IMG/VR virus record: IMGVR_UViG_3300025066_000017
Strand: one strand, 5' to 3'
Source of the DNA: a virus
Lineage: Duplodnaviria > Heunggongvirae > Uroviricota > Caudoviricetes
Length of the DNA stretch: 15,016 bases
Translations under genes and position numbers: made by a program
Part shown: piece after piece, positions 1 through 14,947 of the stretch
Position numbering within the stretch: the stretch's first letter is position 1
How the letters are laid out: every line of letters begins with the position of its first letter
The notes under the pieces: model-generated
Databases searched by the model: none
What the model was told of the DNA's origin: nothing
What the model saw: only the letters and a program-made list of their open reading frames with translations

Positions 1-3000
1 ACGAGGAGAAAGAGTCATTGGAGAGTTTTTACTAGCGGGTTGTCTCTGTTGAATATACGACAGTCTACTTTGCATCTCCTCGAAAACTTTTTTCTCTTCA
101 GGACTCTGAGCAGAAGAAATCAAGTTTTCTAGAGCAGGTGCCACATCAAAAAGAAAGTCTTTGTCTTCTTTTCCTAAATCCAAGCTGGGTTGCCCCGCAA
201 AGCCACCTTGTTCACGCATTTCGTGAACATTTGGCATATTGCTAACTTTAGGAAAATGCAGACCCTCGTTCTCTATAGGTCCTTCAGAAGAACTCGGAGA
301 TCCAGAAGTCCCCGGAGAAACCTCTTCTCCAAGATAATAATCTTCTCCCAGAACATCTGCGGCACCTTCAAGATCTATATGTCCCCAAGGAGATTGTTTT
401 TGCTCATCCTCTCCATAACCAGCCTGGAATGCGTTGTCTCCATAAGTCTGTCTATAGATGTTTTGCGCCTGCTTCAACATCGGTTTCATGAGTTGTTGAA
501 CTGCAGTATCTGGTGCTTCTCCTCCATGTTCCTGGCTAAGACGTCTCAAGCTTTCATTGAATTTTTGCTTGAGACCCATCAACTCTCTATGGGCATCAGG
601 ATTGGCCTGTCGGAGACTTCTTAGGTTTCTCTCGTCATTCCAAAGACTATGCAGATCTTGAGGATTTACCTTTCCTGCAGGTGTCTGTTCTTCGAAAGAA
701 GAAGACCCAGGAGAATCGATATTTTCTTCCCCAATTATTTGATCTAATGTGGCCTCACTTGTCTTGTTGTCGGAAGAAGACCCAGGAGACCCCGGATATG
801 TATCAGTGCGTTGTTCTGGTCCCGGAGGGTCAAACTCTGCACTTTGTGCTTCTGCTATCTTCTTCGGAGAAACTGTTTTTGTCTTTTCATTGGATTGGAA
901 TTGGAGTGCATCCGGGTTCTGAGAAGAAGGATGTCCAGATCGTGTCCCTTCTTCAGATCCTGTGCCACTTGCGCCACTATCAACATCATTCCAAAACGGA
1001 CTTTCCCATGGTTCTAAATGAGTATCTTCAGAACTGCCGCGTTGCCCTGTCTCCATTGATTGGAATTGCAAGCTGTTTTCGTTTTGATTTGTTTCTCTTT
1101 GTGAAGTTGCTCCTCCCTGCGTATCGGAGATTCTTTGATCATCCGACAATTCTAAAATTGATTGTGGAGCAGTTGGAGGGGCTTGTCCTGGTGAAGTTGC
1201 TCCTCCTTGCGTATCGGAAGTTTGTGATAGCGTCGATGGTGCAAATGGAGTAGAAGGATGAGTCTGTGGAGCAAAAGGAGTCGGAGCAAATCCTAAATTT
1301 GTTTGCGTTGACTCTGAAGACTGAATAGGGCTTCCCTGATATGCTTGTGTATTGACAGAGTTGTTGGGCGGATTACTGTCCCGCAATGTTGGCTCTGGGG
1401 CTTCGCCCAAGGAAGTACCATCCTGAGTTCCACTGTAAAGTTGTTCATTTATATTGTCTTTCCATTCCCGAGTTTGAGAAGGTTGTTGCTCTCCCCCGAA
1501 CCCGCTTTCTTGGACAGGCGCAAAAGGATTCCCAGGAGCATTCTGTGCCCCCTCACTCGCCTTTCTCTCTATTTCACTCGCTTGTTGGTGTATCCTGTAT
1601 GTTATTTCTTTGTATTTTTCTATGGGGAGTCCTATTTCAGGGTCAGGGTTCATGTTCTCGTTAAGTTCTCTATACCACTCTCTCTTGAGACCTTGTATTT
1701 GTTCCCGTGCTTCCGCGTTATTATATACATGCGGAAAACTTTCTTCATTATCAAAAAGAACGTCGAGATATCCGGTGGTTTCTCTGAAACGCCTACGTTC
1801 ATTCCTTGCTTGCACTGCAGGAGAATCGTTGTTTGTATTTACTTGTTCCGCCGACCCAGCCGCAGAAGAATTATTGTCTCTAGTTAATGTTCCAGGTGCC
1901 CTCTCCCTTTGTTCAAACTGTTCTTGAGGTTGCTTCTGTCCGGGGAGAGCTTGAGTCGGATCAACTTGTTCAAACTGTTCTTGAGGTTGCTTCTGTCCGG
2001 GGAGAGCTTGAGTCGGATCAACTTGTTCAAACTGTTCTTGAGGTTGCTTTTGTCCAGAAAGAGCTTGAGTCGAATCAACTGGTGCAAAAGGATTTCCTCC
2101 AGACTGTTGCTCGTAAGACTCCCTATTTATTTCGTCCGCCGCATTGTAAGTCTCCAACAAGATGCGATCTTGTACTTCCTGCGGAATATTAGACCCATGG
2201 GCTTCCTCCTGTCTTTTCATCTGCTGCTGGAATCTAGATTGCAAAGAATCTAGTCTTGCCTTCAACTCCGGATTTTTATGGACCCGATCAAAATGTGAAT
2301 CACCAGAAAACATTCCTTCCAAAACTTTCGAAGCAATGGGAACCATTGGGTCTTGCTTTGGGGCTGGTTGAGGGATTCCTGGATTCACCTGTGTCTGTTG
2401 GGGGATTCCAGGATTGGTTTCTGTCTCTTCGGAAACTCCAGGATCAGTTTTTGGATATTGGGGAATCCCAGGGTTCACTTGTGTTTGCTGGGGGACTTCT
2501 GGATTCACCTGTGTCTGTTGGGGAATATTCTGAATGAACGACGAGTATGGACTCAAGTCACCAGGAACATTAGGGAGATTTGGACTCAAATTAGTATGTG
2601 GATTTTCTTGTTGCAGTCGCTCCGGCGTTGGGACCTGGATGCTCTGCCCCGGACGTATTTGTAATGGTCCTGTTCCCTGCGCCTCTCTGTTTCTTTTCCA
2701 CTCCTCGTGTGGATTAGGACTAGGCGCTGATGGTGCAGCAATCGGGTCTCGCTGTCGTGCTGCTAAGTTCTCTATTGGGGTATTTGATGGATCTGGTTGC
2801 GGCACTGTCTGTCTGCTCAAAGGCTCTGTTGACCTTCGCCGACGAGACTCTTCCAAACCAGCATCCATTATAAGCTGGCGTTCCGTGGAAACATCTGTAG
2901 CTGGTTCTCTTGGGAGACCATCGGGGCTTGGAACTGGTCCACCAAAAGGATCGTTGTGCTGGGCAACTGGAGTTGCTCTGGGTGTGTTTGGAGTGGGTGC

Positions 3001-4047
3001 AAAAGGAGTGTTTGGAGTGGGTGCGGAGGGCTCGTTTGAGGTAGGCCCTTGTCCCTGAGACGCCTGTTGAATTCGATCTTGTACGTGTGGTGATAAACGA
3101 GGCACAGGAGAACCTTCTCTTGCTTCTCCTTTTACTCGACTTTGTTCTCCAAGAAGTTGTGCTTTTGGAACACCATACTCGTCGTTCATCTCGAGCAAAT
3201 GATGCATTATATCTTCATCTTCTCGAGATCTTCTTTCTGGATCTATTCCACCATCGAAACTGTCAATAAAGCTTACTTTGTGGTGATCTGGACTCTGCAC
3301 ACCCTCGTCCAAGCGAACTCTATAGTTTGCATGTGGATTTTTTGGTGTTCTAGGACCGAAGGGTGTTTGATTTACAAGAGATTCTTTAGCTCCGCGTGTC
3401 GCTTGTTCCTGTTGAGGAACTTGTTTATTTGTCGGCGGCGCAGGTGAGTGTACAACGGGTTCTTGATGCTGTTGTTGTTTGTGGGCTGGAGTATGTGGTG
3501 TCTGAATACCTTCGTGGGATAAAGAAGGAGCTACGTTGGGATCTTTGGAGTGACTGGTACCAAAATCTCCGAATGCAGTAGTCGAATCCTTGCCCGAAAA
3601 AGACCTATCTCTGAATACATCACCAAGACGTCCATGATAATCTCTGCTGACTCTTATATCGGTTGGTTCAAACTCAAAGGAATGTCGAGAATCACTTACT
3701 GGATGATCATGCGAATATATTCTGTATCGATCTCTGGGCTCTGTTTGTTCTTTTTCACTGTGTTGACGTTCTGAATCTAGAGAAGAAGATTCACTGTATG
3801 ATCCAAGACTAGATGCCCCCTCACTATATGGATTTGACAGCCGTTCGTTTTTCCCCTGGAGGCTGGGACTATGTGGTTCTGCAGAAGCTTCGGAACTTGG
3901 TGAGAATTCCGTTGGGGTGGGATCTGCGCCTCCTGATACTCCAAACGCAGCTTTGGCTAATTGATCTTGTGTTTCCCAAGGCAGTGGAGCAGTCCCTAGA
4001 GATTTCAGTGTTTCTTCATTATAGAGCTTAGTGGAGGCTTTACCCAT
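1..4047 (-). CDS. Giant low-complexity protein, N-terminal 1349 aa only (runs off the left edge); function unknown, possibly a virion-associated or polyvalent phage protein
   Basis: Manual translation of the reverse strand from ATG at 4047 (MGKASTKLYNEETLKSLGTAPLPWETQDQ...) to position 1 (...QQRQPASKNSPMTLSPR) found no stop in 1349 codons. An in-frame TGA lies upstream at 4066-4068. All internal repeats have lengths divisible by 3 (57 nt, 30 nt). Confidence 0.93.
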   Translation of the reverse strand, partial: MGKASTKLYNEETLKSLGTAPLPWETQDQLAKAAFGVSGGADPTPTEFSPSSEASAEPHSPSLQGKNERLSNPYSEGASSLGSYSESSSLDSERQHSEKEQTEPRDRYRIYSHDHPVSDSRHSFEFEPTDIRVSRDYHGRLGDVFRDRSFSGKDSTTAFGDFGTSHSKDPNVAPSLSHEGIQTPHTPAHKQQQHQEPVVHSPAPPTNKQVPQQEQATRGAKESLVNQTPFGPRTPKNPHANYRVRLDEGVQSPDHHKVSFIDSFDGGIDPERRSREDEDIMHHLLEMNDEYGVPKAQLLGEQSRVKGEAREGSPVPRLSPHVQDRIQQASQGQGPTSNEPSAPTPNTPFAPTPNTPRATPVAQHNDPFGGPVPSPDGLPREPATDVSTERQLIMDAGLEESRRRRSTEPLSRQTVPQPDPSNTPIENLAARQRDPIAAPSAPSPNPHEEWKRNREAQGTGPLQIRPGQSIQVPTPERLQQENPHTNLSPNLPNVPGDLSPYSSFIQNIPQQTQVNPEVPQQTQVNPGIPQYPKTDPGVSEETETNPGIPQQTQVNPGIPQPAPKQDPMVPIASKVLEGMFSGDSHFDRVHKNPELKARLDSLQSRFQQQMKRQEEAHGSNIPQEVQDRILLETYNAADEINRESYEQQSGGNPFAPVDSTQALSGQKQPQEQFEQVDPTQALPGQKQPQEQFEQVDPTQALPGQKQPQEQFEQRERAPGTLTRDNNSSAAGSAEQVNTNNDSPAVQARNERRRFRETTGYLDVLFDNEESFPHVYNNAEAREQIQGLKREWYRELNENMNPDPEIGLPIEKYKEITYRIHQQASEIERKASEGAQNAPGNPFAPVQESGFGGEQQPSQTREWKDNINEQLYSGTQDGTSLGEAPEPTLRDSNPPNNSVNTQAYQGSPIQSSESTQTNLGFAPTPFAPQTHPSTPFAPSTLSQTSDTQGGATSPGQAPPTAPQSILELSDDQRISDTQGGATSQRETNQNENSLQFQSMETGQRGSSEDTHLEPWESPFWNDVDSGASGTGSEEGTRSGHPSSQNPDALQFQSNEKTKTVSPKKIAEAQSAEFDPPGPEQRTDTYPGSPGSSSDNKTSEATLDQIIGEENIDSPGSSSFEEQTPAGKVNPQDLHSLWNDERNLRSLRQANPDAHRELMGLKQKFNESLRRLSQEHGGEAPDTAVQQLMKPMLKQAQNIYRQTYGDNAFQAGYGEDEQKQSPWGHIDLEGAADVLGEDYYLGEEVSPGTSGSPSSSEGPIENEGLHFPKVSNMPNVHEMREQGGFAGQPSLDLGKEDKDFLFDVAPALENLISSAQSPEEKKVFEEMQSRLSYIQQRQPASKNSPMTLSPR
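448..2322 (-). repeat. Three diverged copies of a ~69-aa helical module inside the giant ORF (2119-2322, 1561-1767, 448-654)
   Basis: Aligned by eye: LEGMFSGDSHFDRVHKNPELKARLDSLQSRFQQQMK...AADEINRE / LDVLFDNEESFPHVYNNAEAREQIQGLKREWYRELN...QASEIERK / LHSLWNDERNLRSLRQANPDAHRELMGLKQKFNESLR...QAQNIYRQ. Confidence 0.7.
1909..2079. repeat. Coding tandem repeat, 3 x 57 nt (19 aa VDPTQALPGQKQPQEQFEQ on the minus strand)
   Basis: Units 1909-1965 and 1966-2022 are identical; 2023-2079 has a few substitutions. Confidence 0.97.
2371..2520. repeat. Coding tandem repeat, 5 x 30 nt (10 aa, consensus QQTQVNPGIP)
   Basis: Minus-strand translation: QQTQVNPEVP QQTQVNPGIP QYPKTDPGVS EETETNPGIP QQTQVNPGIP. Confidence 0.9.
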
Positions 4048-4183: not shown

Positions 4184-4208
4184 AAAATCTTTAGACTCTA
4201 AAGATTTT
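4184..4208. promoter_or_regulatory. Dispersed palindrome copy 1: AAAATCTTTAGA-C-TCTAAAGATTTT
   Basis: Perfect 12-bp arms with a 1-nt centre. It lies in the divergent intergenic region, 19 nt upstream of the SET gene start. The regulatory role is inferred. Confidence 0.75.
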
Positions 4209-4227: not shown

Positions 4228-4620
4228 TTGCTTTTCATCTCGCATTATATAAAGCACTCTTCTGTCCATGGACTTGGTCTCTTTACATCCACACCCGTTA
4301 TCTGCGGAGAAGCGATATGGCAATTCTCATCAGAATCTTGTCTCATTATGACAAAGGATGAATGGTTAGGTCTCATTGCTTCTTTGGGAGAAGAAAACAC
4401 TGTAAAGATAAAGAAATGGACAGAAGTCGATGGCGAATTTTTTATAATGTATACGGATGGGTCACAATTTATAAACCACTCCGACAATCCAAATGTTAAA
4501 GATGAGGGAAATAAAATCATTGCCCTACGCGATATAAACACCCACGAAGAAATAACACTGGACTATAAAGTCGCCCTCGACCCCAGAGATCACGAATTCT
4601 TAAAAGAGTATCTGAAATGA
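4228..4620 (+). CDS. Stand-alone SET-domain protein (putative protein-lysine methyltransferase)
   Basis: SET motifs: S.VHGLGLFT near the N-terminus, FINHSDNPN (NHS motif), IALRDI...EEITLDY (ELxxDY). TTG start with AAGGA 7 nt upstream. No post-SET cysteines. Confidence 0.9.
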   Translation: MLFISHYIKHSSVHGLGLFTSTPVICGEAIWQFSSESCLIMTKDEWLGLIASLGEENTVKIKKWTEVDGEFFIMYTDGSQFINHSDNPNVKDEGNKIIALRDINTHEEITLDYKVALDPRDHEFLKEYLK

Positions 4621-5240: not shown

Positions 5241-5762
5241 ATGAAAACCCAAGTCTTATTTATGTCTTCATTCTTAAAGATCATCAACACATATAGCTGG
5301 CTCATTGGACCCCTTGCTACAGGTCTTTTTATTTGGTGGTCTAGACGATTTTACAAAAAGGTAACAGAGATGATCGCATCACCAGAAAAAGTCGAACAAC
5401 TTGAGAAAGAAGTCAAGAACCTTAGAGCTATCGTAGAAGGAGTCCAAGATGAAGATACAGGTGAGAGAAAAGATGGCCTAGTGGACCAAGTCGCAAAACA
5501 GAACGAAACACTCTCAGAAACTCTTCCTCATGGATTGAAAAAAATAGAAGAAACACAAGGTGAAATCAGAGCATCAGAGGAAAGACTGCGAGGAGACATT
5601 AAGGCATCCGAGCAGCGATCCGCCCGGAGTTTGAATGATACTCGGCTAGAACTCTCTCGCCTTGTTTCTCACGAAGTCGAAAGAACTCTTGATGCAAAAC
5701 TAGTTCCACTTGAGCAACGCCTCACTACCGTCATTCAAGAGACTGCAGAGCGACGAGAATAG
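5241..5762 (+). CDS. Hypothetical membrane-anchored coiled-coil protein
   Basis: GGAG RBS. One N-terminal hydrophobic segment (SWLIGPLATGLFIWW) followed by basic residues (RR..KK), then E/K/L/Q-rich heptad-like sequence. Confidence 0.8.
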   Translation: MKTQVLFMSSFLKIINTYSWLIGPLATGLFIWWSRRFYKKVTEMIASPEKVEQLEKEVKNLRAIVEGVQDEDTGERKDGLVDQVAKQNETLSETLPHGLKKIEETQGEIRASEERLRGDIKASEQRSARSLNDTRLELSRLVSHEVERTLDAKLVPLEQRLTTVIQETAERRE

Positions 5763-5789: not shown

Positions 5790-6197
5790 ATGCGCTTGCT
5801 TCTTGTTGATGATAATCCAATTGATAGAGAGATACTCGAGACTTTCATTCATGACTTTGATTCTTCTATTATTATCATGCACGCTGAGCACGGCGAGGAA
5901 GCAATTGCGCTGCTCCTGGAACTCCCCAGAAAAGACCTCCCCAATCTAATCCTTTTAGACTTGCATATGCCTATAATGGATGGTTTAGATTTTCTTGATG
6001 CAAAATCAAATCTAAACGATATCATCCAAGCAATCCCCACACTTGTTCTTGCAAACACCGGGATAGCACAAAATGTTTTGAGAAGCTATATAGCCGGTGC
6101 TAATGCATTCATTGAAAGACCCATTGCACCATCTCTATTTAGAAAAATAATAAAAAGTATCTTCGCATTTTGGAATGATGTTGCGCTTCTGCCCTAG
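5790..6197 (+). CDS. Single-domain response regulator, Rcp1-like receiver, with atypical switch residues
   Basis: LLLVDD, LILLDLHMP (D57), GANAFIERP and the C-terminal FW..V.LP typical of Rcp1-like receivers. Ala88 replaces the conserved Thr/Ser and Arg110 replaces the conserved Lys. Confidence 0.92.
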   Translation: MRLLLVDDNPIDREILETFIHDFDSSIIIMHAEHGEEAIALLLELPRKDLPNLILLDLHMPIMDGLDFLDAKSNLNDIIQAIPTLVLANTGIAQNVLRSYIAGANAFIERPIAPSLFRKIIKSIFAFWNDVALLP

Positions 6198-6204
6198 ACG
6201 AAAT

Positions 6205-7302
6205 TTAGACAATAGGGATCTTTACAAAGAAAGTAGATCCTTCATCATATGTAGAGATAAAATCTATACTCCCACCCAAAAGCTCTATTTTTTTTCTAGA
6301 GAGAGCCAGTCCCATCCCATCTCCGGGTATCGAAGATCTATGATGCAAGCGCTGTAGAATTTGAAAAACCTTCTCTTTGTCTTTCTCTCGCACTCCGATT
6401 CCATTGTCTGTAAAAGAAAGAATAACGAAGTTTCTTTCTTTTTTTATGTCTACAGAAACCACGAGCTTTCTATTAGGGCTTTGATATTTTTTTGCGTTAT
6501 CTAGAATATTACTGAAGACAGAGTATAGAATGCTTCTATTCGAATCCACTGACATCTTTCTACTAAAAGAAATAGATGCGCAGCACTTCATGTCTAAGTC
6601 TGTTATTGCATCCGCAATAATATCTCCCAAATCAACACTTTCTGATGTCTCTACACTGTCTAATAAATCTATACGAGAATAGGATACAAGAAAATCTAAC
6701 AATCCTGAAAGTCTCTCGGATGATGCTATTATTTTTTTATATATTTCTTGATCTTCCGGACTTTGTAGGGAAGATTCTAAGAAACCCAAGTATCCGCAAA
6801 TAGCTCGAAGAGGAGCACGCAAGTCATGGCTTATAGAATAAGCAAGCTGTTTCAAGTCGTCGCATTGTCGCTGTAGACGGTTATTGAGTTGATACTCTTT
6901 CGTTAAATCGTTATGAGCACCCAATATTCGTATAGGATTTCCGTCGTTATCTCGAACCACATAACCCCGACATCGAATATAAACAGTCCCACCGTCTGCG
7001 TGATGATATCGTACCACCTGTTGATAACAGGGACGATCAGGATTATTGATAGATTCTTGCATCAAAATATTAGCAGTTTCTAAGTCTTCTGCAAAAATTA
7101 GATCTTGCCACTCCGACGCCTTATGCTCTCTTGTATTGGGATCATATCCCAATGTTTTCCAGAACTCTGGACTCATCCATTCGTTTTCATTATCGGTGAG
7201 ATCCCAGTACCAGACACCATCCAGAGAACCCTCACAAAGAAAATCAAAAATTCTTTGATCTTCTTGAAGTTTCTGAATTAATTCTTGATGTAGATAATTC
7301 AT
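6205..7302 (-). CDS. Soluble PAS-domain sensor histidine kinase (PAS-HisKA-HATPase_c; H-box of the Cph1/bacteriophytochrome-kinase type)
   Basis: PAS: DGVWYWDL...WMSPEFWKTLGY...WQDLI...VVRYHHADG...RCRG..VRD.DG.P.RILGAH.D.T. H-box AYSISHDLRAPLRAI, N-box VFSNILDNAKKY, DNGIG, GDGMGLA, EGSTF. No transmembrane segment. Start placed at ATG 7302 (AGGT upstream); the ORF track extends to GTG 7377. Confidence 0.95.
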   Translation of the reverse strand: MNYLHQELIQKLQEDQRIFDFLCEGSLDGVWYWDLTDNENEWMSPEFWKTLGYDPNTREHKASEWQDLIFAEDLETANILMQESINNPDRPCYQQVVRYHHADGGTVYIRCRGYVVRDNDGNPIRILGAHNDLTKEYQLNNRLQRQCDDLKQLAYSISHDLRAPLRAICGYLGFLESSLQSPEDQEIYKKIIASSERLSGLLDFLVSYSRIDLLDSVETSESVDLGDIIADAITDLDMKCCASISFSRKMSVDSNRSILYSVFSNILDNAKKYQSPNRKLVVSVDIKKERNFVILSFTDNGIGVREKDKEKVFQILQRLHHRSSIPGDGMGLALSRKKIELLGGSIDFISTYDEGSTFFVKIPIV

Positions 7303-7361
7303 TTTTTTACCTGAGAGTTCAATAGTAACAATCATCAGAGTAGACGAATTCTGTTTCCTTC

Positions 7362-7808
7362 TCAAATTCGGCCACACATACTTGGAAGCCTTACTAGTTT
7401 AATCCAAAACTCTGAAAAAGTTTCTATTACCTCCATGAAATCAACAACAGAAACAGGTTTTCTTAAAAAAGCATTTGCATGTAATTTATAGCTTTTTATA
7501 ACATCTTCGTCCGCACTTGATGATGTTAGAACTATGATTGGGATCATTTTAAATTCTGGATCTTGCTTTACGATTTGAAGAAATTCAAAGCCATTCATTA
7601 TTGGCATATTGATATCGAGAAGAATTATATCAGGGAGGCAACTCTCTCCCTTTTTCTTCATTAGTATATCAATGCCTTCTTGTCCATCTCTCGCGATCAA
7701 TATGTTGTTTTTTATCTTTCTTTGAAAAGATGTCTCTATAAAGAAAACATCATCCTCATCATCATCTATGAGTAATATCTCTATTTCTTTGCTTGCTTCT
7801 TCTTGCAT
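7362..7808 (-). CDS. Single-domain response regulator, canonical Rcp1-like receiver
   Basis: ILLIDDD, IILLDINMP, IPIIVLTSS, ANAFLRKP and FW..LV.LP; all catalytic and switch residues are intact. Confidence 0.95.
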   Translation of the reverse strand: MQEEASKEIEILLIDDDEDDVFFIETSFQRKIKNNILIARDGQEGIDILMKKKGESCLPDIILLDINMPIMNGFEFLQIVKQDPEFKMIPIIVLTSSSADEDVIKSYKLHANAFLRKPVSVVDFMEVIETFSEFWIKLVRLPSMCGRI

Positions 7809-7877
7809 TCTTTTCTTCTTATCTCTGTCTCGTCTCTTTTTCTATATTAGAAACAAGAATTAAGGGGTTTATAAGTC

Positions 7878-8249
7878 ATGGAAACGAGTCGTGTCATTAC
7901 TGTGCGATCTAAGCTAAATCGTCCCATCGATGTATTAATAGTTCTAGATAGTCTCCGAAAAAGCAAGGAACCTGTACATAGATCTCAAATATTGGATCAG
8001 GTTACAGAGAGTGCTTTTTATTATTCTTTTTACTCCGGGTATGTTTCGTATAAACACGAAGAAAACAAAAAGGGCATCCTTCTTCTCATTTCCCCCAAAG
8101 ACCCTATTGTCGGTTTTGTAAATCAAGGATGGTTTGCGCTTCTAGAATATAAATCGCTAACTGCCCAATGTCCCGACATCGAGAAGATAGAAGAACATTT
8201 TGGAATACCCACAGGTGGCATAAAATCTTTAGAGTCTAAAGATTGCTAG
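7878..8249 (+). CDS. Hypothetical protein
   Basis: 123-aa ATG ORF, AAGGGG upstream, fills the gap between flanking genes; no recognisable motif. Confidence 0.65.
   Translation: METSRVITVRSKLNRPIDVLIVLDSLRKSKEPVHRSQILDQVTESAFYYSFYSGYVSYKHEENKKGILLLISPKDPIVGFVNQGWFALLEYKSLTAQCPDIEKIEEHFGIPTGGIKSLESKDC
8224..8244. promoter_or_regulatory. Dispersed palindrome copy 2: AATCTTTAGA-G-TCTAAAGATT
   Basis: Perfect 10-bp arms. Overlaps the last codons of 7878-8249 and ends 15 nt before GTG 8260. Confidence 0.75.
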
Positions 8250-8259
8250 GAGTCGAATT

Positions 8260-8532
8260 GTGCGCTTATTAAGCAAAAAAGAATCAAGAGCAGAAAGAAT
8301 ATTTTTGGATCTAGTAGGACAATGTATTTGGGAGACAATCGGATCAAGCCGAATAAGGTCTCTATATGACTCATATGCCAAACAATGTCTGGCTTTGGGA
8401 AAAGAAATTCCAGATAAATATTTGCCTGGAAGACTAATTCTACGCCTGTCTTCCAATGATAGATTGGCTCTACAAAGTCTAAGATCATCACACATACAGC
8501 ATCGAGATGCTCGTTACTGGGGGAAACTATAA
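8260..8532 (+). CDS. Hypothetical protein
   Basis: GTG start with AGGAG 7 nt upstream; its stop overlaps the next start (TAATG). Confidence 0.7.
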   Translation: MRLLSKKESRAERIFLDLVGQCIWETIGSSRIRSLYDSYAKQCLALGKEIPDKYLPGRLILRLSSNDRLALQSLRSSHIQHRDARYWGKL

Positions 8533-9371
8533 TGGGAAAACGATTCGAACAATGTCCCGAATGCAATAAGAAAGGTTTATATGTATCCAATGGCTATCCC
8601 TACTTTGGGGATGGAAGTAAGACTTGTCGATATTGTCAACATATAATTCTATCATCCGAACATCTTGCTAAGAAAGAACAGCAGCGCATCGACAGAGAGA
8701 AGGCGATGGCTTGGCTTAAACAAAAAGAACGCAACTTTGAAGCCCTCGAGAAAGCACTACACCCCGAACGAGAAACATTCTCCAACCTAAGAGAAACACA
8801 TCCCCACTTCTTCCCCAATAACCCAAAAACTTGTTTTGAATCCATCGATAAATTTCCTGTCGCAAGATATGCAATCGATGTCTCATGGGAATATTTGAGA
8901 CAGTCCATCCAAACATTAACAGGAGATGGATGGTTCCCACTTGAAATGAACCCTCCCTATCAGCGCGGCTATGTTTGGACGGTAGAGCAAAAGATTGCTT
9001 TTGTTGAGTTTCAATTGCGGGATGGTGTCGGCGGCGACCAAATTTATTGGAACTGCAGGGACTGGGACAAAAGGGGTCAAGAAGGGACAAGTAGCCCTCT
9101 GGAGATTGTTGATGGGAAACAGAGACTCATGGCTGTGCTAGACTTTTTAGATGGCCATATTCCTGCTTTTGGCTCCTACTTCAGTGAGTATGAGGGACGT
9201 TTGGGAATGATTACCCCAAAGTTTAGAATGAATGTAAACAACCTCGAAACAGAGCTAGAAGTTGTGCAATGGTATCTCGCGATGAACACGGGCGGAAGCA
9301 TACACACTGCCAAGGATCTTGCACCCGCGCTCGAATTACTGCAAAGTCTACAAAACGGGGAATTCTTTTAG
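8532..9371 (+). CDS. Zn-ribbon plus DUF262 (ParB/sulfiredoxin-like, GmrS-type) domain protein
   Basis: N-terminal CPEC...CRYC. DUF262 motifs NPPYQRGYVW, IVDGKQRL and MNTGGSIHT. No HNH/DUF1524 nuclease domain is seen. Confidence 0.85.
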   Translation: MGKRFEQCPECNKKGLYVSNGYPYFGDGSKTCRYCQHIILSSEHLAKKEQQRIDREKAMAWLKQKERNFEALEKALHPERETFSNLRETHPHFFPNNPKTCFESIDKFPVARYAIDVSWEYLRQSIQTLTGDGWFPLEMNPPYQRGYVWTVEQKIAFVEFQLRDGVGGDQIYWNCRDWDKRGQEGTSSPLEIVDGKQRLMAVLDFLDGHIPAFGSYFSEYEGRLGMITPKFRMNVNNLETELEVVQWYLAMNTGGSIHTAKDLAPALELLQSLQNGEFF

Positions 9372-9861: not shown

Positions 9862-9886
9862 AAAATCTTTAGAATCTAAAGATTTT
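9862..9886. promoter_or_regulatory. Dispersed palindrome copy 3: AAAATCTTTAGA-A-TCTAAAGATTTT
   Basis: Perfect 12-bp arms, starting immediately after the TAG stop at 9859-9861 and heading an AT-rich intergenic region. Confidence 0.75.
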
Positions 9887-10563: not shown

Positions 10564-11202
10564 GTGCGCAAAGACTCAACCACACAATACAGACACGTTC
10601 ACAATAATCTCTATGGACAAACCGGCAAAACCAGAATCCCATCCCATTTCATAACTGCATGGGGAGAAACAAAAACCTTTCAAGAATGGATCGAAGATCC
10701 AAGATGCAAACCAGACAAAATATCACTTCTATACGATCGAATAATAAACCGAAATGTCTCACCCGAAGAAGCAATATCAACTCCTCCCGACACAACAAGA
10801 TCTCCTTTGATTTTTAGCTTGTGGGGAGAAACCAAAACTATCCGCGAATGGTCCGAAGACCTAAGATGTCTTGTTAAATACTCGTGTCTGTACTCAAGAA
10901 TTGCCATAGGCAAGTGGGATTTTGAAACCGCGATTACCACCCCTGTTGGAGCAAGACGAAAGAAAAAGAAAGTCAGAAGATATCGAGAAATAAAGCGCAA
11001 AACATTATTTTCTCTATGGGGTGAAACAAAAATGATAAGCGAGTGGGCTCGTGACTCCCGATGCCTTGTGACTGTCAAAACTATACGCAGACGCCTGCGA
11101 CTTGGGTGGCCTCTCATCTTTGCCACCACAACACCTCCTCATCACTCCATCACTACAGAACTTCCGCATCCTATCAATCATTGGCCTGACACAGAGACTT
11201 AA
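10564..11202 (+). CDS. Putative DNA-binding protein with three tandem WGETK..EW..D.RC modules (resembling the C-terminal DNA-binding region of phage HNH endonucleases)
   Basis: TAWGETKTFQEWIEDPRC...ISTP, SLWGETKTIREWSEDLRC...ITTP and SLWGETKMISEWARDSRC...GW...TTTP. GTG start with AGAGGA RBS. No HNH catalytic motif is seen. Confidence 0.75.
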   Translation: MRKDSTTQYRHVHNNLYGQTGKTRIPSHFITAWGETKTFQEWIEDPRCKPDKISLLYDRIINRNVSPEEAISTPPDTTRSPLIFSLWGETKTIREWSEDLRCLVKYSCLYSRIAIGKWDFETAITTPVGARRKKKKVRRYREIKRKTLFSLWGETKMISEWARDSRCLVTVKTIRRRLRLGWPLIFATTTPPHHSITTELPHPINHWPDTET

Positions 11203-11238: not shown

Positions 11239-12141
11239 ATGAAAAAGAAACGAATCTTTTTAACCAAAAAGTTTCTGGAGAAAAAAGGAATACAACCTCT
11301 TACCATTACCAGAATATTCCAAGCCGCAGGCAAAGAAGAACAAGAAAGATTCCGACTACCCAACACACCTGAAGAATGGTTGGCATACCTCAAAGCTGCA
11401 GCCTCCCTCGGACGACCGCGGCTTTGTTCTGTGTTTAAAAAACTGGAAATCCCGGTCGATCTATCGGGGATTCTTTTTTATGAAGAACTCAATAAAGATG
11501 ACCCCGAAATCCAAGCCTTCGATGGTGCCATTCTCGATAACGCATCATTCTGGAGAATGAACCTCACACACCGCTCATTCCTGGGTTGCAAGGGGAAAGG
11601 AACAAACTTCACAGAGGCCAACCTGAGCCACGGGAATATGAGTGATTCGGTCTTCGAGGAAGCCGACTTCTTAATGACCCAAATGGTCGACATTCATCTA
11701 AACCACTGTAGGTTCATCGCATGTAACTTTATGGAGGCGCGACTTGAAGAAGCGCTTGTCTATGGTTCTTCTTTCCCCAAGTCGTATATGTTCCGAACAG
11801 ACTTCCGCTACGCCCTTCTTCAAAAAACATCCTTTCAAACAAGTCTGTCTCTTTCCGAAGCCATCTTCGGTCAAGCCAATCTAAAAGAAACAGGACTGCT
11901 TGTTGCCTGCATCTCTGGGCGAGCCGTTCTCTGTACGCCAGACAGACTTCACATCGGATGCAACTCCGAAAAGCATGAGTACTGGCAATCTCTAACCCCA
12001 GAAGAAGTCGAAGACTATTACTCACATCTCGGTGGACACCAACTATGGCCTCACCGAGAACTCTTCTATCAAATCATGGAATACTGTCGAAATATCGGAT
12101 GGCCCGAACCCATGATGAAGAAAAAGGAAGAAACCACATGA
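11239..12141 (+). CDS. Pentapeptide-repeat protein (phage type, with a C-terminal IGC-containing domain)
   Basis: About 20 or more 5-residue units (AILDN ASFWR MNLTH ... TNFTE ANLSH ... ADFLM ... TDFRY ... ANLKE), C-terminal DRLHIGC...EYW; AGAGGA RBS. Confidence 0.88.
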   Translation: MKKKRIFLTKKFLEKKGIQPLTITRIFQAAGKEEQERFRLPNTPEEWLAYLKAAASLGRPRLCSVFKKLEIPVDLSGILFYEELNKDDPEIQAFDGAILDNASFWRMNLTHRSFLGCKGKGTNFTEANLSHGNMSDSVFEEADFLMTQMVDIHLNHCRFIACNFMEARLEEALVYGSSFPKSYMFRTDFRYALLQKTSFQTSLSLSEAIFGQANLKETGLLVACISGRAVLCTPDRLHIGCNSEKHEYWQSLTPEEVEDYYSHLGGHQLWPHRELFYQIMEYCRNIGWPEPMMKKKEETT

Positions 12142-12592: not shown

Positions 12593-13261
12593 ATGAAACC
12601 ACTCGACTTCTTCCACGACTTCGAACTCCCCGGCGAATGGGGAGATCCCCAATACCAAAACAACGTACACCGAAAGTGCGGCACCTGCTCCCTCTGCTGC
12701 CACCATCCATCCATCAAAGAAAATATAGTATGCGACACCATCCAAAATGCCCCCAACCTCTCTGATACCAAGAAAGAAGAAATTACATCCCAACTCTTCC
12801 CCTCCAACCAAGTTGACGATTTCGTAAAACCACCCTTCTCCCCATGCCCACACTTCTCCGGTGACCACTCCTCCTGCGAAGGATGCACTGTCTACGAAAA
12901 TAGACCACAATCCTGCTCCACATACCTGTGTGGATGGCTCCTCTTCCCCAGCGTTTTTCGCAAATCTTCTTCTCGACCCGATAAAACAAAATTTCTCACA
13001 TCCATCGGATTCCTCGAACTAGCACAAGAAAATAGCACAGAAATATTCAGACTCATGTGCATCGAAATACATACAGAAGACACACAACACCTACAAACAA
13101 GACAAGCCCAAAAAACCATTCAACGACTCATTAAGAAATTCAACTACCCCATCGTCATATACACACCACAACATGACACCATCCCCCAATTCTTTCTCAA
13201 CGCCGATACTCATCTCTCCGAAATTCTCACCACCCACGGCTCACAAGCATTCCCACAGTAA
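12593..13261 (+). CDS. YkgJ-like cysteine-cluster (CxxCxxCC) protein, putative Zn or Fe-S binding
   Basis: CGTCSLCC, then KP...CPH...GCTVYENRPQSCSTYLCGWL...RPD. Confidence 0.85.
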   Translation: MKPLDFFHDFELPGEWGDPQYQNNVHRKCGTCSLCCHHPSIKENIVCDTIQNAPNLSDTKKEEITSQLFPSNQVDDFVKPPFSPCPHFSGDHSSCEGCTVYENRPQSCSTYLCGWLLFPSVFRKSSSRPDKTKFLTSIGFLELAQENSTEIFRLMCIEIHTEDTQHLQTRQAQKTIQRLIKKFNYPIVIYTPQHDTIPQFFLNADTHLSEILTTHGSQAFPQ

Positions 13262-13280
13262 TCTTTAGACTCTAAAGATT
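13260..13280. promoter_or_regulatory. Dispersed palindrome copy 4: AATCTTTAGA-C-TCTAAAGATT
   Basis: Perfect 10-bp arms. Overlaps the TAA stop (13259-13261) and ends 22 nt before ATG 13303. Confidence 0.75.
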
Positions 13281-13302: not shown

Positions 13303-14133
13303 ATGGCCATGACACTCACCAGAAGAGACAATCAATATATCCTCGACATCTCTAAGGGACTCTCCCCACCCTACTCATATAACCCATTCGAAATACCCCA
13401 AGACCACATCATCAACGAAAAAACAGGAACCACTTTCGCCTACAAATTCTTTGCACCATCCCATCTTCGCAGTGACACATTTCAATCTTCTCTTCTATCC
13501 GCTCCTCCCAACGTCCACAGTGATACCGATGAATCAAACGAATCTCTCCAGTATCTATACTCCACCCTCTCTCGATATTCCCTGCAGTCCTACTCCACCA
13601 CATACAGCCTTAGTCAACCGACCGTCGCCACCGACAAGCCCCCCTTATTCGCCTTCACTACCCCCATCGCTGCCGCCTACTCCTTCCCCCCAACCACCCT
13701 CTATCGAGATAAATCAATCCACTCCTGGACACACACAAAACAACTCTGGAAAGTCCAAGTCAAACTCTCCCAACTCCTCCCCACCGCTACCGCAGTCAAT
13801 GCCTACGTAAGCGACCTCGACGCATTCTGGTCTGCTCTACATGCCATCTTTAATGAACCTCCATACGCAGAGAAATACATTCGTCCATCTCAATCGACAC
13901 GTCTATCTAAAACAGATGTAGAAAATCCCCTAGACCTTTTCCCCATCATTACATCTCAGGAAGGCATCGCACTCCTCGACCTCCAACGAAATAGAGCATC
14001 CCAATTCAATCAAACACCCTACACCATATCCCCACTACCCGGCACTCTCTTTTGCCACTCCGTCGAACTCATCGAACCTCTACACAACCCATATCACCCC
14101 GACTCAAATAACCCCACACTATCCCCCCAGTGA
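13303..14133 (+). CDS. Hypothetical protein, paralog 1 of a tandem pair
   Basis: AGGA RBS. Shares YNP...IP..HII...G...AYK, PPLFAFTTPIAA, KQLW.V..KLS.LLPTA, PGT.FC and HNPYHP with the downstream gene. Confidence 0.82.
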   Translation: MAMTLTRRDNQYILDISKGLSPPYSYNPFEIPQDHIINEKTGTTFAYKFFAPSHLRSDTFQSSLLSAPPNVHSDTDESNESLQYLYSTLSRYSLQSYSTTYSLSQPTVATDKPPLFAFTTPIAAAYSFPPTTLYRDKSIHSWTHTKQLWKVQVKLSQLLPTATAVNAYVSDLDAFWSALHAIFNEPPYAEKYIRPSQSTRLSKTDVENPLDLFPIITSQEGIALLDLQRNRASQFNQTPYTISPLPGTLFCHSVELIEPLHNPYHPDSNNPTLSPQ

Positions 14134-14947
14134 GAACCATCATGACAAAACATGAAAGCAAAAATAGGGATCTTCACAAGTTCCTCTTCCTCTTCCAGTT
14201 CCCATTCTCCCAAAAGAACCCATACAATCCACAGCCCTACTATATTCCTGAACATCACATCATTGATCCACAAGAAGGCATCATCTACGCCTACAAACTA
14301 CTCCATACACGTTACCCAGAAACTCAAAACAAAACATTCACATCATCCCATGTCGAAAACGAAAAACGATTGGGACGACAACTCTCCAGCTACTATGATA
14401 CATTTTCTGGTACCAGAAGCCCCATCTTATCCTTTCCCATATCCTACCAAGCAATGTACTCACCCAATACAAAAACCACCCCACCCCACACCAACGCCCC
14501 CCCCTCTTTGCCTTCACCACACCTATAGCCGCTGGAGTCTTTTCACCCCCTACTGCTGTAGTCTTTTCTGAACCTTTCTGCGGCAATCTCTTTTCTTGGT
14601 CTATATACAAACAACTATGGCTCGTAAAAGCTAAACTTTCATCGCTCCTACCCACCGCCGCATCCATATATATATCTTCAGAGAAGATACGAAAGTTCTG
14701 GAACAGAGTCACTACCGAAGGAGCCTACCCAAGCTTTAAGGCAAACTCCGGAAACTTACCACCTATATCCATCATACCCACCACCTACCTCGAAGCCACT
14801 ACGACCCCTCCCGGCACTATCTTCTGCGACGAAATTACACCCATCTGCCCCATACACAACCCCTACCATCCACAATCCCTCTTTCCCACCATACCCGAAC
14901 AAACACATCCCGAACGCATCATCGAAACAATGTCCATCCCCATCTAA
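14130..14947 (+). pseudogene. Paralog 2, split by a single-base frameshift at or near the C8 tract 14497-14504 (phase-variable gene, pseudogene or sequencing error)
   Basis: The first frame (start GTG 14130 or ATG 14142) matches paralog 1 up to about SYQAMYS...NAPP. The matching C-terminal half (PPLFAFTTPIAAG...KQLWLVKAKLSSLLPTA...PPGTIFC...HNPYHP) continues in the -1 frame to TAA 14945-14947. One extra C would join them. Confidence 0.85.

Follow-up and report, generated by a model that had tools for sequence, protein, structure and literature searches.

A sensor kinase and two Rcp1-like receivers encoded together in the genome of an uncultured marine jumbo phage

To our knowledge, the phages that are known to sense their environment do so by means of receptors for peptides or quorum signals. 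Components of His-Asp signalling have also been described in relation to phages: phoR and phoB genes are present on contigs of soil phages and have been proposed to act on host signalling (PMC10987575), a divergent receiver that is not linked to a kinase is found in jumbo phages (PMC7824862), and in the anti-phage system Detocs the DtcB protein serves as a "buffer" receiver in a branched phosphotransfer (10.1101/2023.01.24.525353). In the literature that was searched, no paper on a complete phage-encoded kinase-receiver module was found, and the surveys of jumbo or huge phages among it describe no module of this type. The present work concerns a stretch of 15,016 nucleotides of viral DNA (IMG/VR record IMGVR_UViG_3300025066_000017; this whole stretch is referred to here as the window), in which a gene for a histidine kinase with a PAS sensor domain is flanked by genes for two stand-alone receivers, referred to as RR1 and RR2.

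This module is a member of a rare but recurring class and not a first. What is new here is the proof of its linkage to phage genes, the placement of its kinase within a family, and a duplicate receiver that is deficient in the residues needed for switching and yet appears to be kept under selection.

Organization and conserved residues of the kinase and receivers

The original prediction, which was made from the sequence of the window, placed a PAS-HisKA-HATPase kinase and two receivers within positions 5790-7808, and this was borne out exactly by the gene boundaries in Table 1, where the Pfam scores of the kinase and of the receivers are all above the curated cut-offs. RR2 lies directly upstream of the kinase gene on the minus strand, and this pair is the sole minus-strand unit within an array of plus-strand genes. 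RR1 converges on the kinase gene, the two stop codons being separated by 7 nt. The GTG at 7377 was called as the start of the kinase by two independent gene callers and leads to an overlap of 16 nt with RR2. Other possible starts are ATG 7335 and ATG 7302, and the latter (giving a protein of 365 amino acids, aa) is an equally good choice because the homologues of the kinase align with it only from residue 27. The 69-nt region between RR2 and the divergent orf123 is presumably the promoter region of the RR2-kinase operon. A scan for promoters and terminators gave no matches above chance, and in positions 7809-7877 neither a promoter motif nor an upstream motif recurring elsewhere in the phage was found.

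Table 1. Coordinates of the module and of neighbouring features in the window
Feature	Position	Strand	Remarks
RR1	5790-6197	+	135 aa, single-domain receiver; Pfam Response_reg 56 bits (cut-off 30.2)
Sensor kinase	6205-7377	-	390 aa from GTG 7377; Pfam PAS_3 57.4, HisKA 41.5, HATPase_c 68.9 bits
PAS_3 sensor domain	6907-7302	-	kinase residues 26-157
HisKA/DHp domain	6667-6855	-	His184 codon 6826-6828; H-box SHDLRAPL
HATPase_c ATP-binding domain	6214-6534	-	N, G1, F and G2 boxes intact
RR2	7362-7808	-	148 aa, single-domain receiver; Pfam Response_reg 73.9 bits
Intergenic region RR2 (-) / orf123 (+)	7809-7877	.	69 nt, divergent
orf173	5241-5762	+	28 nt upstream of RR1, same strand
Palindrome copy, left of module block	4184-4208	.	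between giant gene and SET gene
Palindrome copy, right of module block	8224-8244	.	3' end of orf123
SET-domain protein	4228-4620	+	PF00856, 39 bits
DUF262/GmrSD_N protein	8532-9371		Pfam
WGETK-repeat protein	10564-11202	+	212 aa, three repeats LWGETK..EW..D.R
Pentapeptide protein	11239-12141	+
CxxCxxCC/YkgJ-type protein	12593-13261

The kinase has the characteristics of the HisKA class of two-component proteins, viz. a phospho-accepting His within an H-box and a GHKL domain with N, G1, F, and G2 boxes, and it retains every column that is invariant in alignments of 20 and of 95 homologous sequences. The H-box S183-H184-D185-L186..P189, all five residues of which are invariant in the 20 homologues, is conserved, as are N290/N294 of the N-box, D324/G326/G328 of the G1 box, F338, and G352/G354/G356 of the G2 box. 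With the catalytic residues of both the kinase and RR2 all present, the description of the module as intact holds, as does that of the kinase as a soluble protein, since a transmembrane segment is absent from it. The position four residues after the phospho-accepting His (H+4) is occupied by Ala in the phage kinase, and Ala or other residues are also found at this position in many members of its family. In EnvZ-type kinases, Thr or Asn at H+4 is needed for phosphatase activity. Given the Ala at this position, a second receiver would be useful for draining the signal.

Across the kinase family, conservation is highest in the PAS_3 domain, whose invariant residues (three Trp, H85, R135-C136-R137-G138, and H155) are all kept in the phage kinase. 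A high-confidence AlphaFold model based upon the 95-sequence alignment, with a predicted local distance difference test (pLDDT) score of 89.7, consists of the PAS domain, a long linker helix, the dimerisation and histidine phosphotransfer (DHp) domain, and the catalytic and ATP-binding (CA) domain. The best whole-chain fold matches of this model were the single-PAS kinases YF1 and SB2F1 (4gcz and 8a6x being among the matches). In the PDB, the kinase core was closest to HK853 (E 1e-21), followed by bacteriophytochrome kinase modules (E 1e-15), whose chains matched this core and no other part of the protein. The sole sequence match of the PAS domain was 3mr0, also a PAS domain, with no ligand named in the title of its entry. 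GAF and PHY domains are absent from the kinase, for which Pfam gave only sensor models of the PAS type, and its translation contains no LOV-type motif (GXNCRFLQ or NCRFLQ, with the adduct-forming Cys). The likeness to the Cph1/Rcp1 pair that was originally suggested therefore applies to the receivers, which resemble Rcp1, RcpA, and BphR, but not to the kinase, which has one PAS_3 domain, no GAF/PHY module, and a core nearer to that of HK853.

A total of 1129 homologues of the kinase were detected, and the best cellular ones, the phage's own lineage aside, are 38-46% identical to it. The family consists of soluble kinases of about 380 aa from marine Pseudomonadota, Bacteroidota, Myxococcota, Planctomycetota, Actinomycetota, and Cyanobacteriota. 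In a maximum-likelihood tree of these proteins, the branch leading to the phage kinase has a length of 1.66 substitutions per site, compared with a median of 0.44, and the kinase groups only weakly with a few metagenomic proteins that sit in ordinary cellular contexts. No donor is identifiable for the kinase, and neither its tree nor that of the receivers indicates a donor phylum. At most of 80 bacterial loci that encode members of this family, the kinase is followed by one single-domain receiver, and a receiver that precedes the kinase is rarer. Most of the receivers beside these kinases are of another subtype, and the Rcp1-like minority includes the receiver next to the nearest relative of the phage kinase (P0005), where it lies just downstream in convergent orientation, as RR1 does here.

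Both phage receivers are single-domain proteins, as had been claimed, but they are not equivalent, RR1 being a divergent duplicate in which two switch residues are replaced. RR2 is canonical, with the acidic pair D15/D16, the phospho-acceptor D65 (7614-7616), T95, and K117, and at its C-terminal end it has an FW..LP motif, which is that of the Rcp1/RcpA/RcpB group as visible in the receiver alignment. Of the features by which a receiver is recognized (acidic pocket, phospho-acceptor Asp, Thr, and Lys), RR2 has all whereas RR1 has only the Asp part, keeping the acidic pair D7/D8 and the phospho-acceptor D57 (5958-5960). Its switch residues are replaced by A88 (6051-6053), in a position that is normally Thr or Ser, and by R110 (6117-6119), where Lys is normally found. 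Among 66 aligned receivers, RR1 is alone in having Ala in the Thr/Ser column and alone in having Arg in the Lys column.

The assignment of both proteins to the Rcp1/RcpA/BphR type was confirmed by PDB searches and by phylogenetic analysis. The matches of RR2 were to 6xvu (1e-31), Rcp1 (3e-25), and RcpA (6.5e-24), with E. coli CheY at about 1e-9, and those of RR1 were weaker but to the same group (6xvu 6e-14, RcpA 5e-10, Rcp1 2e-9). In the receiver tree both of them branched inside a 19-member clade of Rcp1/RcpA/BphR-like proteins with a support of 100/99. Within it they were each other's sisters, with a score of 91 in the Shimodaira-Hasegawa-like approximate likelihood ratio test (SH-aLRT) in a quick search, and with an ultrafast bootstrap (UFBoot) value of 95 and an SH-aLRT score of 68 in a careful search. 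The branch of RR1 has a length of 2.4 as against 0.3-0.4, roughly a sixfold difference from the branch of RR2. The two proteins also have in common a Glu and a Thr in helix alpha1, which are found in 5 and 3 of the 66 receivers, respectively; alpha1 is the main surface by which regulators dock on the DHp domain. The simplest reading of these sequences is that RR1 is an altered duplicate of RR2, which would have been duplicated inside the phage lineage and then specialised.

The strain represented by the window was compared with that of a JGI assembly over the three genes of the module (about 675 codons). The two strains differ by 19 synonymous and 10 non-synonymous changes, and the ratio of non-synonymous to synonymous polymorphism (pN/pS) is lowest for RR1 (0.09), in which A88 and R110 are unchanged between both strains, followed by the kinase (0.16) and RR2 (0.24). 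These values, although derived from few substitutions, suggest that all three genes, the altered RR1 among them, are under purifying selection. The G+C content at third codon positions (GC3) is 0.315 for the kinase, 0.36 for RR1, and 0.275 for RR2, compared with 0.32-0.43 for phage structural genes; the value of the kinase is thus just below the range of the structural genes and that of RR1 within it. This composition fits a long residence of the module in the phage better than a recent capture.

Linkage of the module to phage structural genes

The module had originally been noted among phage-type genes, and the phage origin of the locus is now established by its physical continuity with genes for portal, tail sheath, and virion proteins. 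An 84-kb contig from an ENA metagenome (L001) contains a stretch that matches the window at 99.6-99.99% identity, and a JGI contig of 25.5 kb from another sample (L044) shows the same gene order at 98.6% identity. Between L044 and an uncultivated virus genome of IMG/VR (G002) there is an overlap of 2371 bp in which the two are 100% identical; it falls within the giant gene found at positions 1-4047 of the window. The gene order in G002 is that of a tail-fibre-like protein, a protein with an embedded Fe/Mn superoxide dismutase, the portal, a virion structural protein, and the tail sheath. Its portal (PF04860, 59.7 bits; phrog_12, E 7e-49) is interrupted by intein and LAGLIDADG domains and is 39-41% identical to the portals of SPO1-like Bacillus myoviruses.

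Three further assemblies (ENA ERZ27249063, JGI 3300025141, and Logan SRR5251702) carry the RR2 end in the same context, this end being all that was fetched of the module from them. The ERZ27249063 contig is 83.7 kb long, about 36 kb of which separate the module from the nearer end, and that from JGI 3300025141 is 60 kb long. In all, at least five independent assemblies (ERZ27249139, ERZ27249063, JGI 3300002514, JGI 3300025141, and SRR5251702) contain the locus, and the module is intact in at least two of them.

On the other side, beyond a polymorphic insertion sequence (IS), the DNA is colinear, at 87-96% identity, with the terminal 9 kb of an IMG/VR contig of 161 kb (G001). The completeness rating of G001 is 68%, and ten tRNA genes are located at its opposite end. 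The 161 kb of G001 and the 84-kb contig together give an estimated genome size of about 245 kb. As portal, sheath, and virion genes are contiguous with the locus, and the estimated genome exceeds 200 kb, the source is an uncultured marine contractile-tailed jumbo phage, of about 245 kb by this estimate. No protein is shared between G001 and the structural contig, and G001 ends about 3 kb short of the pentapeptide genes and about 10 kb from RR2. Its possible status as a relative that lacks the module (no kinase or receiver is present there) was considered and rejected. G001 is the remaining part of a genome of this kind, and because it ends about 10 kb before RR2 it is uninformative on the presence or absence of the module. 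The tRNA genes at its start (L033:33-2489) are those for Met (two), Ile, Asp, Ala, Thr, Pro, Arg, Asn, and Leu.

A palindrome of 21-25 bp with the core AATCTTTAGA-n-TCTAAAGATT is characteristic of this phage, with 5 copies in L001 where 0 were expected and 41 in G001. The copies in the window are at 4184-4208, 8224-8244, 9862-9886, and 13260-13280, on both sides of the module; three of them lie at 3' ends of genes on the plus strand, and the fourth is between the giant gene and the SET gene.

The IS mentioned above belongs to the ISAZ013 family and is 1297 bp long (L133:10913-12209, in a JGI contig), its transposase being split into open reading frames (ORFs) of 181 and 235 aa. The JGI and ERZ27249063 strains carry this IS, whereas the strain of the window lacks it. 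The insertion site is about 2 kb past the right end of the window (L001 367-369), with a 3-bp overlap of the junctions that is a possible target-site duplication. The transposase provided no clue to the host, as identical copies were found only in the contigs of this phage and the next best match is 67% identical.

Proposed signalling circuit and alternative explanations

A reading to which we give about an even chance, and which is based upon sequence comparisons, is that the module constitutes a functional two-component circuit owned by the phage, in which the kinase would signal to RR2 and RR1 would serve as a non-switching buffer or competitor. By means of it, the virus would probably read an intracellular cue itself. 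The cytoplasmic PAS_3 domain would bind or sense the same intracellular cue as its cellular homologues and thereby control the autophosphorylation of the kinase on His184, from which the phosphoryl group would pass to Asp65 of RR2, the receiver of the same operon. Because RR2 has no output domain, it would have to act by protein contact, with a host or a phage protein as its target, in the manner of Rcp1, CheY, and DivK-type receivers. RR1 would dock on the kinase and take or compete for phosphate without signalling, serving as a buffer, a threshold-setter, or a competitor. It keeps the phospho-acceptor pocket, and the coupling of phosphorylation to the conformational switch through the Thr and Lys would be lost. 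This non-signalling role is proposed because the T87A and K109R mutants of CheY can be phosphorylated yet do not switch. The net effect would be that some step of infection is tuned to the physiological state of the host cell. The roles put forward in the original prediction, namely a gating of decisions during infection or cross-talk with phosphorelays of the host, are hypothetical. If this is correct, a lytic-type jumbo phage with a complete His-Asp circuit, having a conserved PAS domain and a specialised second receiver, would represent a different route of sensing, by which a virus measures an intracellular cue without relying upon the regulators of its host.

A number of observations weigh against this circuit. 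The strain comparison rests on few substitutions, and the sister relationship of RR1 and RR2 has only moderate support, RR1 being a long branch. For the PAS domain a clue to the ligand is absent, in that the title of 3mr0 names none and the fold search gave architecture only. The roles of A88 and R110 in RR1 are presumed by analogy with the T87A and K109R mutants of CheY. Lastly, RR1 is in a separate, convergent transcription unit, and it may not work with this kinase.

Rather unlikely, in our view, is that the module, instead of sensing for the phage, jams a homologous pathway of the host, the kinase constitutively phosphorylating or dephosphorylating the cognate receiver of the host while the phage receivers soak up phosphate from host kinases belonging to the same family and so lock the response on or off in the course of infection. 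Both the family of this kinase and receivers of the Rcp1-like type occur widely, in marine Pseudomonadota, Bacteroidota, Myxococcota, Cyanobacteriota, and other groups, so that the host plausibly has a homologous system; two stand-alone receivers without an output would fit the role of a sink, and the long branches of RR1 and the kinase would fit an altered function. However, the PAS domain keeps every residue that is invariant in the family, which suggests that signal input is still selected for, and the rare alpha1 residues common to RR1 and RR2 suggest that they are tuned to the phage's own kinase rather than to one of the host.

It is distinctly unlikely that RR1 has a job uncoupled from phosphorylation that would be performed together with orf173, such as the setting of a threshold or a link to the inner membrane (e.g. 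in lysis timing or DNA release). The two genes are possibly co-transcribed; the SET gene, whose start is uncertain (calls of 90, 130, and 145 aa), heads the plus-strand unit that ends with RR1. According to its translation and hydropathy, the orf173 protein has a hydrophobic segment at its N-terminus and, after this, a long helical region that is charged, and it has no relative outside its own lineage among 1.84 billion representatives. Its identification as a releasin or as a DUF2746 protein was considered and rejected, as the Atlas leads were all below 0.9. If RR1 does act in this way, the virus would decide how fast infection proceeds, or how it ends, by gauging the intracellular state of the host for itself.

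Returning to the circuit of kinase and RR2, its relevance to infection would be in doubt if the module were a passenger, i.e. a bacterial kinase-receiver cassette captured in a variable accessory region and having no role in infection. The module does lie in an accessory block with a G+C content of 0.33-0.40, compared with 0.43-0.49 in the genes to the right, its RR2-kinase part runs opposite to the plus-strand array in which it lies, and the nearby IS polymorphism shows that the region tolerates insertions. We nonetheless regard this as improbable, in view of the absence of a close cellular donor (at most 46% identity), the long branch, and the phage-like composition. The module is also intact in two or more assemblies, and in three more its RR2 end is found with the same surroundings, these assemblies coming from several samples; non-synonymous change is less than synonymous change in all three genes, and the duplication and specialised divergence of RR1 would have taken place within the phage lineage.

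A highly improbable explanation is that the receivers, or the module as a whole, serve as a counter-defence decoy, diverting the phosphate flow of a His-Asp anti-phage system that is Detocs-like or PDC-M43-like. Detocs makes use of a kinase and two receivers, one of which stands alone as a "buffer" while the other is fused to an effector (10.1101/2023.01.24.525353). Genes of a conflict type are found in the neighbourhood (DUF262/GmrSD_N, an HNH-associated repeat protein, and pentapeptide proteins), and PADLOC gave a weak match of the kinase to PDC-M43B (30.9 bits, in the ATPase region only). The PADLOC matches are, however, generic to the ATPase domain, no match to Detocs and no effector domain were found, and the kinase clearly belongs to a cellular sensor family of the housekeeping type with a conserved PAS domain; a decoy, moreover, would have no need of a PAS kinase of its own.

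That the locus is host chromosome, or a chimeric assembly joining chromosomal signalling genes to phage DNA, which the original prediction had named as what would refute it, is hardly credible: the close relatives of the kinase and receivers are indeed cellular only, but no fewer than five independent assemblies contain the locus in the same context, its DNA runs on into genes for portal, sheath, and virion proteins as well as into 161 kb more of phage DNA, and the phage-specific palindrome is present on both sides of it.

Surroundings of the module and comparison with known systems

The surroundings of the module are largely as first described, with the DUF262, pentapeptide, YkgJ-like, and WGETK-repeat proteins all recognized, but an "ABA sandwich" protein was not identified. 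The WGETK-repeat protein matches phrog_3377 and phrog_1065, which are annotated as being associated with HNH endonucleases, and it has paralogues in G001 near 118.8-119.6 kb. Paralogous pentapeptide-repeat genes occur in a row (window 11239-12141, plus strand; L001 400-1314; L044 1349-2293), and their number varies between strains and gene callers. Between 12500 and 15016 the plus strand of the window is strongly G-poor, with a GC skew of -0.3 to -0.57. The ENA and JGI gene callers differ on strand and frame in this region, and the Ser/Thr/Pro-rich low-complexity ORFs at 13303-14571 have no family matches. At the other end, the minus strand of positions 1-4047 encodes a giant acidic repeat protein, which has 3298 aa in the ENA contig and more than 3000 aa, truncated, in the JGI contig. 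The number of its repeats varies between assemblies, especially at 1966-2031, and between the window and L001 a repeat unit is shifted; identity is 90-95% in this gene compared with 98.6% elsewhere.

The occurrence of similar modules was examined in deposited phage genomes and in IMG/VR. Among 50,697 deposited phage records, matches to the kinase were weak (<30% identity), and most were in records without annotation or in whole bacterial assemblies that had been deposited as phage. In IMG/VR, a scan with the kinase as a single protein gave no match, and an alignment-based scan detected its family on 4 contigs with a G+C content of 33-63%. Three of these four contigs were checked, and they have the bacterial-type layout of kinase then receiver. 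In addition, 45 IMG/VR contigs with an Rcp1-like receiver were recovered, of which about 25 have a kinase directly beside it and 30 have one within 6 kb. Some of these contigs are 240-530 kb long, and a terminase match was found in two of the five tested. Two very AT-rich IMG/VR contigs (L151 and L159; 344-348 kb, 22-23% G+C) encode a sensor-less kinase of 349 aa directly followed by a receiver of 122 aa. One of the two has a terminase match, and they look like another lineage of phage-borne kinase-receiver pairs.

The statement that complete sensor-kinase modules are uncommon in phages thus roughly holds, with no close homologue in the deposited phage records and four IMG/VR contigs with the family, but the module is not unique, in view of the roughly 25 IMG/VR contigs and of Microcoleus phage My-WqHQDG (see below). 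Kinase-receiver sets of phages are probably under-reported, being unannotated in deposited genomes and in dozens of large viral contigs. The present locus encodes three small soluble proteins that are amenable to direct testing, and RR1 provides a natural experiment in which the Thr and Lys switch residues have been lost and the phosphorylation site has been kept.

Of the described systems, the best PDB matches of the receivers are Rcp1 (1i3c/1jlk), RcpA (1k68), RcpB (1k66), and the receiver chains of 6xvu and of the bacteriophytochrome fusion 8avv. Like the Rcp1 group, the phage receivers are single-domain proteins of 135-150 aa with the C-terminal FW..LP. They differ from this group in that the kinase adjacent to them has a single PAS_3 domain and is not a phytochrome (PAS-GAF-PHY) kinase with a bilin-binding module, and in that RR1 is without the conserved Thr and Lys. 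The phage kinase, of only 390 aa, likewise lacks the bilin-binding GAF/PHY core of the Cph1-type phytochrome kinases, and it lacks the motif that distinguishes the LOV blue-light kinases. The YF1/FixL-type PAS-kinases (4gcz, 8a6x) have the same arrangement of one PAS domain, a coiled-coil linker, DHp, and CA; they are 17-19% identical to the phage kinase, in which the LOV cysteine motif is absent.

The phage kinase is not PhoR (95-96 bits with the NCBIfam models, whose cut-offs are 334-500), and the receivers are not PhoB (50 bits versus a cut-off of 296) and have no DNA-binding domain. NCBIfam in fact places the module proteins in no named system, and, unlike the phoR and phoB of soil phages, the sensor and receivers are here encoded together. 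As in the case of DtcB and of CheY-type phosphate sinks, the phage module combines one kinase with two receivers, of which one (RR1, by the role proposed for it here) is plausibly an absorber of or competitor for phosphate. It differs from Detocs (DtcA/DtcB/DtcC) in having no effector-bearing receiver, no match to a Detocs profile, and a kinase of a different family; PADLOC gave only weak, generic matches of the module proteins to PDC-M43B and PDC-M60B and identified no named system.

Among phages, Microcoleus phage My-WqHQDG (a cyanophage; OR578706.1, >160 kb) has a 545-aa kinase with HisKA and HATPase_c domains and a weak PAS_4 match, followed by two stand-alone receivers. This module (OR578706.1 88856-91414, corresponding to L138:3128-5686) is located between the genes for primase and PIF1 helicase. 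The kinase and one of the two tandem receivers are annotated as hypothetical proteins, and the preprint on this phage does not mention the kinase-receiver module. In contrast to the locus described here, its three genes are co-directional; the two kinases are 27% identical over their core, and the two phages are of different lineages.

The cellular PAS_3-HisKA-HATPase_c kinases of about 380 aa are uncharacterised proteins that have the same domain order, length, and invariant residues as the phage kinase and also have a stand-alone receiver adjacent to them. Examples include proteins from Ruegeria sp. TM1040 (annotated as "PAS/PAC sensor signal transduction histidine kinase"), Gilvibacter sediminis, Reichenbachiella agarivorans, Sulfitobacter, and Acaryochloris. 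The phage kinase is distinguished from them by an identity of 33-46%, by its very long terminal branch, and by being encoded by a phage. Additionally, whereas the cellular kinases usually have one receiver, which is mostly located downstream, the phage module has two, and the canonical one of these lies upstream of the kinase.

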